The notes under the pieces were generated by a model that was not told where the DNA came from, searched no databases, and was given only the letters and a program-made list of their open reading frames with translations. Position numbers and translations under genes: made by a program. A DNA stretch of 64,000 nucleotides from a virus (taxonomy: Duplodnaviria > Caudoviricetes): IMG/VR virus record IMGVR_UViG_3300042196_000418; one strand, 5' to 3'. Positions 42,590 to 48,432 of this stretch are shown one piece after another. The stretch's first letter is position 1. Each line of letters opens with the position of its first letter.

Positions 42590-42719
42590 ATGTCCCGGTG
42601 CGACGTCTTGAGTGTGCCCCAAAAGCCTCAGGTTCCCCAATACCCACCCCTCTTCCTCAAAAGCTCGATCAACGTTCGGTAATCACGCGCGTCGATGCGC
42701 GGCCCGCGAGAGCTGCTCG

Positions 42720-42788
42720 GACAAAAGTAGAACGGCGTCGCGACAGAAGTAGAACAGCCTCTACCTCAAAACTCGACAGAAGTAGAAC
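42720..42788 (+). repeat. left subterminal repeats GACA(A/G)AAGTAGAAC x3
   Basis: 42720, 42742, 42775. Confidence 0.85.
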
Positions 42789-42895
42789 GGGCTAACGGCG
42801 TCACGGCAGACGGGATACGCGGCGACCCACGTGTTCCGACATTCACGATCACGTGGCGCGCTAGAGACGGGGTTCGCCGACACCCCGGCGCTCCC

Positions 42896-43210
42896 TTACC
42901 AGCCGCGTTCGCGTTTGTTCCGCGCCCACTGCTCGCGCTGCTCGCGACGGATGCGCCGGGATTCCTCTGCGGTGAGGTCAAGCACGATGGGACCGGGCAT
43001 GCTGTTCAGGATGTCCATCGTTCGCACGAAAAATAGCGCGCGATCGACATCGATGAGCCGTTCACCGTTTGCAGCTCGGGTCGGGCGAAGGATGTCGTCG
43101 ATCCTACGAATGCGCGCTGCGGTCCATCCCAGCATGCGCGCGACGGCATGGATGGTCACGACGTGCTTCGAGCCCACGGGCGGCATGCGATTGGGATTTC
43201 GCTGGCGCAT
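42896..43210 (-). CDS. MerR-like HTH protein
   Basis: TIHAVARMLGWTAARIRR...PTRAANGERL. Confidence 0.55.
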   Translation of the reverse strand: MRQRNPNRMPPVGSKHVVTIHAVARMLGWTAARIRRIDDILRPTRAANGERLIDVDRALFFVRTMDILNSMPGPIVLDLTAEESRRIRREQREQWARNKRERGW

Positions 43211-43268
43211 CTGCCGTTCGTAAGGCGCACGAGGCTAGACCGCAATGGCAGGCGAGATCCCGGGCTAC

Positions 43269-43697
43269 CTACTTCTTGCGCAGTGCTTCCGCGATCTCGG
43301 CATCGAGCTGCGCCGACGTCTTGCGGTCCGTGCGATGCCCGACGAGAACTGTCGCGGTACGTAAGCCGTGGCGATGTGCCGTAAGCATCCGATGCGTACC
43401 GTCGAGAACAGTGCCGTCATCGAAAGCCAAGATGGGACTTGCATGGAGAGCTTTTGCGAGTCCGCCGCGCGCCTTCGCCCACTGCTCGATGGTTTCGATT
43501 CGATCTAGATCGTCTTTATCGAGTGGTTGTCGCGCGTAGTCTTCAAGCGTTCCGACACCTGAAAAACGGAACCACCCTAAGGGACGCTTCTCTTCTGTCC
43601 AGGGCAGATCAAATTCATCACCTTCGAGAATGAACTCGGCGTCTGGCGATCTTGTGGTGACGTCGTTAACAACCTTCAGACCCTTCACGCCCGTCAC
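43269..43697 (-). CDS. ParB/Srx N-domain protein with C-terminal KTSAQLDAEIAEAL tag
   Basis: PILAFDDGTVLDGTHR. Confidence 0.7.
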   Translation of the reverse strand: MTGVKGLKVVNDVTTRSPDAEFILEGDEFDLPWTEEKRPLGWFRFSGVGTLEDYARQPLDKDDLDRIETIEQWAKARGGLAKALHASPILAFDDGTVLDGTHRMLTAHRHGLRTATVLVGHRTDRKTSAQLDAEIAEALRKK

Positions 43698-44216
43698 TCA
43701 CGCGCACTCAACGCGGTTGGTGCGGCACCATTCGTAGGCCGCGTCTTTCGCTGCGGTCATCGCAGCCTTCTTGCTTGAATAGCCGCCTTCGGCGACGAGC
43801 GACTCGGTGAAGCTGCCCGTGTCGCTGTCGACCGTGGCGAGCGCCCACCACGTGCCGCCCTTCTTCAGCGCTCCGTAGTACACGCCGTCGCCTTTGCTGC
43901 CCATGTACTCGGCGTCGTCCCAGTCGAGGTGCGGCGGCGCGCCGTACTTCGCCTGCGTCTTTGAATAGGCGCTTTCCGTCTCCGGGATCTGTTCGGTGAC
44001 AGTGAAGCTATGGGCGCCCTTTGATTTCTCGTTGAGCACGTGGACTGCCGCGCTGTCCTTGATGAGACCGCGTGGATCGGCGAGGAAGTATTCGCGCACG
44101 TAAGAAGGGATCTGCGAGCCCTTCTTCCATTTCCCTTCGCCGCGCTTTACCGCCAGCAGGCCAAAGCCTGAGATGGCTCGTTGAACCTTTGCCGTCCATG
44201 TCGATTCAGACTTCAT
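43698..44216 (-). CDS. hypothetical protein
   Basis: coupled ORF. Confidence 0.6.
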   Translation of the reverse strand: MKSESTWTAKVQRAISGFGLLAVKRGEGKWKKGSQIPSYVREYFLADPRGLIKDSAAVHVLNEKSKGAHSFTVTEQIPETESAYSKTQAKYGAPPHLDWDDAEYMGSKGDGVYYGALKKGGTWWALATVDSDTGSFTESLVAEGGYSSKKAAMTAAKDAAYEWCRTNRVECA

Positions 44217-44422
44217 TTGTACCGAACCTCGTCGATATGCTCAGCCGCCTTCTGGACGGCCTGCCACGCCTTGTCGAGGGCCTTATAGGTGGCCGGCGGA
44301 GCGGCGCCTTGTAGCGCGAATGCTTGGGTGAGTTCGCCCTGCACCTCGCCCAGCAGCTCGAAGATGAGCGTAAGCTTCCCGTACATCGCAGGGTTGTTTC
44401 GTTTCGCCTCCGTGCTCGCCAT
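44213..44422 (-). CDS. hypothetical protein
   Basis: ATGA overlap with the next gene. Confidence 0.5.
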   Translation of the reverse strand: MASTEAKRNNPAMYGKLTLIFELLGEVQGELTQAFALQGAAPPATYKALDKAWQAVQKAAEHIDEVRYK

Positions 44423-44431
44423 GCAGCGATG

Positions 44432-46125: not shown

Positions 46126-46208
46126 GATATCTATTGTATAGCTGGTAGATATGACAGATCATGGAATTGACTCCGTGCGCTAACCGATATACAAGCGCTA
46201 TCAACAAC

Positions 46209-46427
46209 ATGGCGACCAAGACGAAACCAGCGGCCAAGAAGGACACGTCGGAAAAGAAGCGCCGCAAGGCCGTACTCAAGGACAAAGGGATCCTGGTCCG
46301 CGTCACCGCAGACGAGAAAGAAGCGATCGAGGCGGCAGCGAAGAAAGAGCACCTCGCCGTCTCGACATGGTTGCTGACTGTGGCGTTTCGCGAGATCGAG
46401 AGGCAGGCGAAGGCCGCTGCGAAGTGA
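46209..46427 (+). CDS. ribbon-helix-helix protein (DUF1778/MobC-like)
   Basis: ILVRVTADEKEAIEAAAKKEHLAVSTWL; divergent from the transposase. Confidence 0.7.
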   Translation: MATKTKPAAKKDTSEKKRRKAVLKDKGILVRVTADEKEAIEAAAKKEHLAVSTWLLTVAFREIERQAKAAAK

Positions 46428-47306
46428 TCAGTTCAGATCGGATCCTTCCTCCGAGACGGGCACGGTCAGCGCGTACAGCGCTCCGTGCTCGTTCGCGCCG
46501 TGGAACGCGATGACGCCCTTCTCAAGTAGGCGCAAGAGATCATGCCTGAGCGTCGCCTCATTGAGCTTGCGGCCCTTGCGATGCAGACGGCTCTCGACCT
46601 GGCGCGCAATGAAACGCTGACCCAGCGGCAGACTCTCGTTCGAGAGGACGTCGACAATCATCGCGGGGATCGAGTCGACGCGCGCCGCGACGTCAACGCC
46701 AGGAAGCGCCCACGTCGTGTTGTGGTGCGCGCCGTGACGCTGTATTCGCTTCTTGCGCTCAAGGTACTTCAAGAGGCTCCAGACGTTTGGGAGCGCCAGG
46801 CGAATCCTCTTTGCAATCTCGCTCGCCCGGAGACCTGTCCGATCAGCGTCGAGAAGCTTGAGAATTCGATCCGTGTGCTTTTGAGCTGGCCTCTTGTTTC
46901 CAGGCTCGCGTAGTCCCGCGCGTTGAAGGCGCCTTCGGAAGTTGGTGCGATCGACGCCTGCGATGCGCGCTGCATCGCTAATGGTGCCGTTTGACTGTTC
47001 CATGATGCGCGTGAGGTGATCGCGCTCGATATCTTCGGCCGCACGGCGCTTGGCCACCTCGATCGGTACATCAGTCGGCGTCTCGATCGTGGGCTCGGCC
47101 GTCGGCGTCTCGATCATGGGCTCGGGCGTCGACGCGGTAGTGGTGCCCGCAGCGTTCGTAGCGGCAGCGAGCCTTTCCTCGATCTTGAAGTAGATTGCCT
47201 CGCACTGATCGTCGGTGAGCTTGTCCACCGCTGCGATTGCAACCGCGAGCAGCTCGGCCTTGAGCAAGGCAAACTGGCGGGCCTTCTCGCGTGGGTTCGT
47301 CGGCAC
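46428..47306 (-). CDS. Fis-type HTH plus winged-helix DNA-binding protein
   Basis: ERDHLTRIMEQSNGTISDAARIAGVDRTNFRRRLQRAG; GLRASEIAKRI. Confidence 0.7.
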   Translation of the reverse strand: MPTNPREKARQFALLKAELLAVAIAAVDKLTDDQCEAIYFKIEERLAAATNAAGTTTASTPEPMIETPTAEPTIETPTDVPIEVAKRRAAEDIERDHLTRIMEQSNGTISDAARIAGVDRTNFRRRLQRAGLREPGNKRPAQKHTDRILKLLDADRTGLRASEIAKRIRLALPNVWSLLKYLERKKRIQRHGAHHNTTWALPGVDVAARVDSIPAMIVDVLSNESLPLGQRFIARQVESRLHRKGRKLNEATLRHDLLRLLEKGVIAFHGANEHGALYALTVPVSEEGSDLN

Positions 47307-47374
47307 CCATGTGATTTCGCACGACGACGCATCACGAAAGCCTGCGAATGATCTCGCGCTTCGTGACTCGGGCA

Positions 47375-47513
47375 GTAACAGATCGGGCTGTCGGCCGCGT
47401 TGTTTTGTTACCTTCGGATGCCCTAGGTAACAGAACGGGTCGGTCGAGCGTCTGATCTGTTACCTATCGGCGCGTCGAGTAACAAAACGGACCGCTGCGA
47501 CGGTGTTTGTTAC
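47375..47513. repeat. three tandem GTAACA...TGTTAC dyads, 52-bp period
   Basis: 47375-47411, 47427-47463, 47479-47513. Confidence 0.85.
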
Positions 47514-48112
47514 TCCCTGTGTTGGGAAAGGTACGTCGTCAAGGTGCGTGGCTTGAAACGCTTCCCGCGTATCCCGCCCTCGTAGAGTCGCTGGGACATC
47601 TCGGTGGCGCCGACCTCCCATTCGAGCATCTTCAGGAAGACCTCGTGCTTTGCGACCGACGGTGTGCGTCCTGCCTTCGACGGCCAAAGCTTGTCCAACT
47701 GCTCTGCGTGCCATTGCAGCGTCGTTCGGATCAGCTCGGCCGCGTCCAGGAGCGTCGCGGCTTGCCGTCGAAGATTCTCGCGTATCCCGCCTTCCACGAG
47801 CTGATCGAGACGGCCCTCGGTGAGTCGCATATGCGGGCCGTCGTGTTTCCACTTCAGCTTGTCCAGGATCACGCTGCGCGCGTAGCGCGAAGGTTTCACG
47901 TCGCGAAGCTGGTACTTGAAGGTACTGAGGCCCTCTAGAAGATCGGCGCTCCGATGAGCAGCGTGGCCTTCTCTCTCGATCATGTCCGCAAGCCTCGTCG
48001 CCTCGTCGCGGAACTTCTTCTTGTCGAGATCGCAGACAACCGAGATCCAGGCGGTCAGCGCTTTCCAGTCCTCTTTCGTCGCAGGCTCGAACTTGCGCTG
48101 CTTCTTGGCCAC
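47510..48112 (-). CDS. hypothetical protein
   Basis: 200-aa ORF inside the transposon. Confidence 0.6.
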   Translation of the reverse strand: MAKKQRKFEPATKEDWKALTAWISVVCDLDKKKFRDEATRLADMIEREGHAAHRSADLLEGLSTFKYQLRDVKPSRYARSVILDKLKWKHDGPHMRLTEGRLDQLVEGGIRENLRRQAATLLDAAELIRTTLQWHAEQLDKLWPSKAGRTPSVAKHEVFLKMLEWEVGATEMSQRLYEGGIRGKRFKPRTLTTYLSQHRE

Positions 48113-48269
48113 TTGCCGAGATCGTCGAACGGCCGATCGCGCGGCGCAAAAAAGAGCGTGGCGTTTCGTCGGTTACGTAAGCACGTCGAGAAGTGCGCAA
48201 CCCTGAAAAGGAACGAATGCAGACGCATCCCTTCGAGACCGAGCTGCGGCTCTTTTCCGGTCGCGCGCT

Positions 48270-48313
48270 GTTCTACTTCTGTCCGCTACCTCAAAAGGCG
48301 ACAGAAGTAGAAC
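48270..48313. repeat. right subterminal GACAGAAGTAGAAC copies
   Basis: inverted at 48270-48283, direct at 48300-48313. Confidence 0.85.
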
Positions 48314-48432
48314 TGCGCAGCGTTCAACTAGAGTCGCGTTACCTCAAAACCCATGTCGGTTCCCTAAAACCCCCGATTTCCGACGAGGTTTTGGGGCACA
48401 CTCACGACGTCTTCCCGTATCACTCCTGCAAC

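Follow-up and report, generated by a model that had tools for sequence, protein, structure and literature searches.

The 64,000-nt window analysed here, IMG/VR record IMGVR_UViG_3300042196_000418 of a virus (Duplodnaviria; Caudoviricetes), carries a real, recently mobile 5.8-kb cargo transposon of a huge uncultured phage, inserted between the two enhancer boxes of a sigma-54-type promoter. The element belongs to a family that inserts at a fixed distance from phage sigma-54 enhancer boxes of the form GGGT-N8-ACCC, a targeting established here statistically. It is probably an autonomous, non-composite cargo transposon with an IS903-like transposase (F3), in which a second element protein, F1, reads the enhancer box and acts as target selector. 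The window genome is of high GC content, with small genes mostly on one strand. Contigs carrying relatives of the element are referred to below by L numbers.

Boundaries, empty site and target distance

The element is bounded by a perfect 16-bp terminal inverted repeat (TIR), TGAGTGTGCCCCAAAA at the cargo side (end A) and its reverse complement at the F4/F1 side (end B), and is flanked by two copies of the target-site duplication (TSD) CGACGTCT. Both lie exactly where the original prediction, made from the letters of the window alone, had placed a 16-bp repeat and an 8-bp direct repeat. The 16-bp end has only two exact copies in the 64 kb, with 0.21 expected at three mismatches or fewer. The lengths hold for the window but not for its relatives, in which the common core of the ends is 15 bp (GAGTG...) and the TSD is 9 bp; the window TSD itself is ambiguous, readable as 8 bp plus a T:A end pair or as 9 bp plus one extra end base. 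Both ends also hold the repeats GTTCTACTTCTGTC and CCYCAAAA in subterminal position, and these are almost absent from the rest of the window; all five window sites of GTTCTACY fall in the two element ends. In a test for a composite transposon no complete insertion sequence (IS) was found at each end, only one central transposase gene and short terminal repeats, in keeping with the single-transposase element originally proposed.

An exact empty-site allele was found at the protein level. The product of the gene downstream of the split promoter has two database relatives, P0056 and P0057. P0056 (Logan SRR12684493) is 100% identical to it and carries in addition a 44-residue N-terminal extension, MSRCDVFPYHSC..., which is the letter-for-letter translation of the window minus 42609-48412 and spans the left flank, one TSD copy and the right flank. 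On the 1797-bp P0056 contig the distance from the divergent 72-aa gene to the downstream start is 176 nt, the same as in the window after excision. Further insertions with the same kind of ends number at least nine, and thus both an empty site and other copies with like ends exist. The nearest copy (L001), with a transposase 99% identical, sits at a different promoter. On the strength of the occupied/empty polymorphism and this near-identical copy at another promoter, the element is active at present. A megablast search of GenBank phages with the region returned nothing, the 14 hits from an exact 15-mer scan of IMG/VR were due to chance, their similarity ending at the 15-mer, and the flanking genes had no relatives in viral_contigs.

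The boxes of the split promoter start at 42574 and 48433 and come to lie 55 bp apart once 5804 bp are removed, so that the predicted restoration of box spacing on excision is borne out by comparison with the intact pairs of the window (1506/1569, 9246/9299 and 23069/23132, spaced 63, 53 and 63 bp), each of which is followed by CGGCACGCGAACTGCT and a start codon. P0057, a 90% relative on a 359-kb contig, has the orthologous promoter intact with boxes 63 bp apart. The -24/-12 element of the split promoter reads GGCACG-N5-TGTA, not with the ...TGCT -12 of the other cassettes. Decay after insertion was considered and rejected as the origin of the TGTA variant; it is native, because this intact orthologous promoter (L098:9976-9991) has the same variant. 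Capture of the enhancer for a sigma-54 promoter of the element's own was likewise rejected, there being no -24/-12 in the first 1.2 kb of any copy. No consensus sigma-54 or sigma-70 promoter was found in the element ends, and no sigma-70 consensus anywhere in the element.

With all copies oriented with the transposase on the plus strand, the distance from end B to the edge of the GGGT-N8-ACCC box is 27 nt in L022 and L030, 28 nt in L001, L018, L024, L182 and L188, 29 nt in the window and L020, and 30 nt in L021. The range of 27-30 nt thus accounts for 10 of the 12 insertions with a readable flank. Resident DNA contains 70 boxes with one mismatch or fewer in 152 kb, giving p = 0.0018 per random oriented insertion and a binomial tail of about 1e-26 for 10 or more of 12 events. 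When the targets are aligned the box is the only conserved part, the flanks and TSDs differing in each copy, and L018 and L024 are independent insertions at an orthologous promoter. The far end is 19-20 nt from the second box at a pair spacing of 53-55 bp (window, L036) and 28 nt from it at a spacing of 63 bp (L001). Four copies (L020, L021, L022 and L182) adjoin a lone box or are found downstream of a box pair, and both orientations relative to the promoter are seen. Since some insertions adjoin a single box or flank a pair, the constant is distance and orientation relative to one box. The suggestion that the element may target these promoters is therefore strongly supported by the enrichment near boxes, but a position between two boxes is not the constant.

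It is highly improbable that these positions arose without active targeting, by random insertion followed by survival only in enhancer spacers, where little harm would be done to the phage. The genomes are densely coded and most random insertions would be lost, but insertions keep the same distance to within +/-1-2 nt and the same orientation with respect to the box, at the chance level given above; moreover, some insertions lie outside box pairs and other intergenic DNA is available.

At L182:13512-13700 a second terminus of end-B type (GGCTGTGCCCCAAAA...) with subterminal repeats is located 7 nt past the TSD of the complete element. No transposase gene was called in the available DNA downstream of it, and it has the appearance of a remnant, tandem or nested, left at this box.

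Family, cargo and transposase

The element represents a previously undescribed, IS903-related family of multi-gene transposons living in huge phages; a literature search on enhancer-targeted transposons and on SWIM-DDE insertion sequences in phages found nothing relevant. Contigs with close transposase relatives have the same 15-bp core ends and 9-bp TSDs, the latter being seen in L001, L018, L020, L022, L030, L182, L188 and a distant group, while no TIR/TSD pair was found in L027, L028, L035 and L038. Element length ranges from 4.9 kb (L022) through 5.8 kb (window), 6.4 kb (L018), 6.7 kb (L024), 9.4 kb (L021) and 9.8 kb (L001) to 12.1 kb (L020). The order of five genes is constant, namely F4, F1, F2 (on the opposite strand), transposase and F0, with the variable genes mostly between F0 and end A. 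Most of the DNA-binding proteins that had been taken for a cargo rich in such proteins are therefore conserved family core, not cargo, and the matches behind the labels MerR-like and Xre-like stayed below threshold.

Cargo is exchanged between copies. The window and L001 elements are 96% identical over a 3.9-kb core and the end-A module and differ in their cargo (1.2 kb versus 5.3 kb). A helicase in the L001 cargo is 53% identical to a resident phage helicase. The 142-aa cargo protein of the window shares a DGxHR stretch, on which its ParB-like label rests, and a phage tag with the product of resident gene 54290-54733. The tag, which had been noted on this cargo protein as KTSAQL, is indeed at its C-terminus and in five resident genes at 51.8-54.8 kb; it reads, however, KTxAQLDxEIxxAL. 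The tagged protein and the helicase thus match the phage pool, as expected of an element that has picked up genes from this kind of genome.

F0 is, judged from its sequence, the most constrained gene of the element and under strong purifying selection. Its identity is 83-99% between copies with transposases of 57-71% identity; 15 synonymous and 1 non-synonymous codons differ between the window and L022; and F0 accompanies even those transposases of bacterial relatives that are at 30% identity. In one further contig (L036:10001-14528) end A, which lies 19 nt from a box, and F0 are both intact, and the transposase match is limited to residues 277-454 (92% identity); this is probably a decayed or rearranged copy.

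The transposase F3 matches PF01609 (DDE_Tnp_1) at 27 bits against a cutoff of 23, and residues C54, C56, C71, H73, D229, D310, R367, E371 and K378 are invariant in the family, leaving the SWIM finger and the DDE/YREK residues intact. Relatives at 48% identity or more form about 49 clusters, all metagenomic. Within species genomes, relatives reach 34% identity at most, the best in Polyangiaceae and Myxococcales and then in many bacterial and archaeal phyla. The family profile matches the IS903 transposase over the catalytic core (hhalign, 97.5% probability, E 6e-12). The NCBIfam IS5 equivalog NF033579 scores 77 bits, below its cutoff of 140 and over residues 187-407 only; tblastn of F3 against plasmids gives about 25% identity to IS5-family genes, and the profile has no relative among solved structures. 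Relatives at 30% identity are elements of 2.8-7 kb with 9-bp TSDs and ends of the GGCTTTGC type (GGCTTTG type).

IS903 makes 9-bp target duplications (PMC9282650). It shares with the family this TSD length, the DDE_Tnp_1 core and the Y-2-R-3-E-6-K signature, and in distant family members the ends (GGCTTTGCACAATAAA and similar) are very like the IS903 end GGCTTTGTTGAATAAA, itself confirmed beside an annotated IS903 transposase gene. Because of the profile match, the 9-bp TSDs and the IS903-like ends of distant relatives, the chemistry is IS903-like (IS5 family), unlike the gene content and the size: IS903 has a single gene in about 1 kb, whereas members of this family are 4.9-12.1 kb with five conserved genes plus cargo. 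F3 also has an extra 185-aa N-terminal region with the SWIM finger, its pairwise identity to IS903 is marginal, and, unlike IS903, the family keeps a set distance from a particular regulatory site when it inserts.

The AT-rich distant members L068:4768-11741 and L070:7629-11763 have TSDs TGATTTGAC and AATTTGACC. ATTTGAC is present in both, a hint that this branch, too, has sequence-specific targets.

Candidate readers of the enhancer box

F1 consists of a helical hairpin, a disordered linker, a helix-turn-helix (HTH) domain of the HTH_8 type (Fis/enhancer-binding protein, EBP; residues 82-129) and two winged-helix domains. The HTH_8 domain matches PF02954 at 32.6 bits against a cutoff of 22 (E 7e-8), resembles the DNA-binding tails of GlrR, NorR and NtrX (PDB 5m7n) as well as Fis, and is modelled at pLDDT ~85. 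An HTH_8 insert with the helix DR(T/S)NFR(R/K) is present in every box-adjacent element, while the F1 scaffold as a whole forms about 50 clusters at 50% identity, some with HTH_8 and some without. A small HTH_8 protein without an AAA domain is also encoded by the resident phage DNA of L022 and L030; it matches F1 residues 79-133 at 47-57% identity, and its recognition helix (DR(T/S)NFRR) is almost that of F1. F1 has no Sigma54_activat Pfam match that would make it an AAA+ activator; no GAFTGA or ESELFG motif occurs in the window or the loci, and no activator ATPase is encoded there.

In the sister elements of L033/L191, L189 (two copies) and L192, the transposase shares 50-54% identity with that of the window. 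Their F1 proteins keep the hairpin and the winged helices, with the HTH_8 domain replaced by a short basic/CCHC segment. All of them (L033:8487-14636, L191:8505-14654, L189:8777-14597, a second L189 copy at ~1952-4323 and L192 at ~8280-12711) are inside phage tRNA arrays of 20-26 genes, one with a tmRNA, and have no box at their ends. Because the presence of HTH_8 tracks box targets, and because a resident HTH_8 protein has near the same helix, F1 appears to be the best candidate for the box reader, on evidence that is correlative and confounded by clade.

In the mechanism favoured here, an IS903-like DDE transposase would make a staggered cut of about 9 bp at a target chosen by reading GGGT-N8-ACCC enhancer boxes. 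End B is set 27-30 nt from the box edge, which places the TSD centre about three helical turns from the box dyad. The HTH_8 domain of F1 would bind the box, and the hairpin and winged-helix domains would hold the transpososome, F1 thus acting like TnsD of Tn7 without an ATPase. Genes of the huge-phage pool are swapped in and out of the bay between F0 and end A. Structure prediction for a complex of transposase and F1 scored 0.00, which is evidence neither way.

Another protein of the element could read the box instead, F1 being only an element regulator. The candidates are the transposase, via its SWIM/N-terminal region, F4 and F0. SWIM fingers are nucleic-acid-binding modules and invariant in the family, HTH-like segments occur in the conserved core proteins F4 and F0, and the transposases of the tRNA-array clade, at only 50-54% identity to that of the window, could explain the switch of target as well. 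We nevertheless consider this unlikely: elements that insert away from boxes preserve F0 and the SWIM motif as well, whereas HTH_8 alone among these modules is known to recognise palindromic enhancers of this kind, and its presence and absence go in step with the target. A similarly low probability is given to tethering of the transpososome, through protein contact, to a protein already bound to the box (the AAA-less HTH_8 protein of the phage or a sigma-54 activator of the host), in the manner of Ty3 and Tf1 on transcription factors, with the HTH_8 of F1 serving another purpose such as competition at boxes. The resident small HTH_8 protein with its nearly identical recognition helix is consistent with this, and the fixed phasing from the box dyad would fit docking on a bound protein. 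Tethering leaves unexplained, however, why every box-targeting member has an HTH_8 of its own, lost in the tRNA-array clade.

Several points weigh against F1 as selector. Its binding to the box or to the transposase is inferred only; the link between HTH_8 and target comes from two clades, so that phylogeny is a confounder, the transposase N-termini being themselves only ~52% identical; and neither an ATPase nor any other known target-capture factor was found in the element. The true landmark could be the resident HTH_8 protein or an activator of the host. As to the distance rule, the L184 group is at 19 nt, outside the 27-30 nt range, and the transposase-less remnant end in L182 would sit at 35 nt.

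Tentatively, the family may be viewed as a natural, modular protein-guided system, though we hold this reading with less than even confidence. A small transposase of IS5 type would act together with a separate adaptor, F1, in which an interchangeable insert sets the landing site, HTH_8 for boxes and the basic/CCHC segment for tRNA arrays. If so, the virus's own regulatory code would be used as many safe landing pads through which genes are shuttled among huge phages, and F1, an activator DNA-binding domain without its ATPase, could damp or re-tune the phage sigma-54 regulon. An effect of insertion on promoter activity is likewise conceivable.

Tn7 is a cargo transposon with its own sequence-specific selector, TnsD, and inserts beside the recognised site at fixed distance and orientation. 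The present family likewise shows fixed distance and orientation beside a recognised site, with end B proximal; for a dedicated selector the likeness is suggested by the HTH_8 correlation only. The nine proteins of the window element, unlike those of Tn7, have no rve/Mu-type (TnsA/TnsB) or AAA+ (TnsC) match in Pfam, NCBIfam or PHROG, and no TniQ fold is present in the element. The TSD is 8-9 bp, against 5 bp in Tn7, and there are many targets per genome, every enhancer box being one. Site-selecting DNA transposons are, to our knowledge, rare, and the well-understood ones (Tn7, the Tn7-like CRISPR-associated transposons, CAST, and Tn5053) all combine a Mu-type transposase with an AAA+ regulator. 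Here a simpler IS903-like enzyme, in an element with no ATPase gene, is associated with Tn7-like precision beside a transcription-factor site.

With the sigma-54 EBPs (NtrC/NtrX/ZraR) and Fis, F1 has in common the HTH_8 DNA-binding domain. It differs from the EBPs in having no AAA+ activation domain or GAFTGA motif and in the setting of its HTH_8 between a hairpin and two winged-helix domains specific to the transposon family. Were F1 the reader, it would provide a compact, naturally modular means of DNA insertion next to a chosen protein-binding site, and an example, open to testing, of an enhancer-binding domain taken over by a mobile element. Ty1 and Ty3 (at Pol III genes) and Tf1 (at promoters) insert at regulatory DNA upstream of genes, phased to a bound factor and avoiding coding sequence. 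Insertion at regulatory DNA at a phased distance is common to them and this family, but they are eukaryotic, based on long terminal repeats (LTR) and integrase and tethered by host proteins, whereas this is a DNA transposon of a prokaryotic virus with, apparently, its own reader. Huge phages carry active cargo transposons of their own, which move phage genes (tagged proteins, helicases) between genomes, and phage sigma-54 enhancer sites double as insertion hot spots.

Feature map and minor observations

Table 1. The window element and its flanks, in coordinates of the whole window.
Feature	Position	Strand	Remarks
Resident 72-aa gene, divergent from split promoter	42325..42543	-	Same-size gene at equal spacing in the empty-site contig
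Enhancer box 1 (GGGT-N8-ACCC)	42574..42589	.	15-bp core of the cargo-side end lies 20 nt away
TSD, left copy CGACGTCT	42601..42608	.	Single copy in the empty-site allele
TIR of end A (cargo side)	42609..42624	+	15-bp core common to L001, L018, L036
End-A subterminal region	42630..42797	.	Box-like AGGT-N8-ACCC, CCYCAAAA motifs, three direct GACAGAAGTAGAAC repeats
F5, 104 aa, end-A module, in some copies	42896..43210	-	Homologues by end A in L001, L020
Cargo 142-aa protein, ParB-like DGxHR stretch, C-terminal KTSAQLDAEIAEAL tag	43269..43697	-	Not in the L001 copy
Cargo 172-aa protein	43698..44216	-	No family match; not in other copies
Cargo 69-aa protein	44213..44422	-	
F0, 90-aa HTH protein, C-terminal CPHC	44486..44758	-	Directly downstream of transposase
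F3 transposase, 454 aa, N-terminal SWIM and DDE_Tnp_1	44761..46125	-	Pfam
F2, 88-aa ribbon-helix-helix (NikA-like)	46161..46427	+	Opposite strand in all copies
F1, 292 aa, HTH_8 and winged helices, proposed target selector	46428..47306	-	Profile matches, structure model
39-nt inverted repeat with GGTAACA motifs, between F4 and F1	47375..47463	.	Possible operator
F4, 200-aa all-helical core protein	47510..48112	-	Conserved among copies
End-B subterminal region	48265..48388	.	GTTCTACTTCTGTC and CCYCAAAA repeats, CCCC/GGGG hairpin
TIR of end B (F4/F1 side)	48389..48404	-	
TSD, right copy	48405..48412	.	
Enhancer box 2	48433..48448	.	29 nt from the 15-bp core of end B
Sigma-54-type -24/-12 of split promoter (GGCACG-N5-TGTA)	48496..48511	+	
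Resident downstream gene, 165 aa, served by split promoter	48523..49020	+	

F5 gave a weak PHROG HTH match only. For F4 (model pLDDT 83) Foldseek against PDB found nothing and the wide VIA-align search generic helical bundles only, with Z below 8.

The box-like AGGT-N8-ACCC inside end A (42630-42645) has one mismatch to the enhancer box and is 56 bp from box 1. It recurs at the corresponding position of L018 and L020 but not in L022 or L024, and may serve F1 as an internal site in transpososome assembly or in immunity. A further GGGT-N8-ACCC overlies the F1 start codon (47293-47308; L001:1230; L018:2838), where it codes for MPTNP; it is kept only in the closest copies and is probably a coding coincidence, not an operator. 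GGTAACA(A/G)AAC motifs make up the 39-nt inverted repeat between F4 and F1, recur downstream of F0 (44427-44444), and may be the operator for a small regulator (F2 or F0).

Among the elements in tRNA arrays, the 9-bp TSD of L033/L191 overlaps the 3' end of tRNA-Pro(ggg). Two huge-phage-like contigs of this group encode, in addition, an 850-aa protein with major-vault-protein shoulder domains (L191:1-1420) and a TROVE/Ro60-like protein with a vWA domain (L192:14385-16058).

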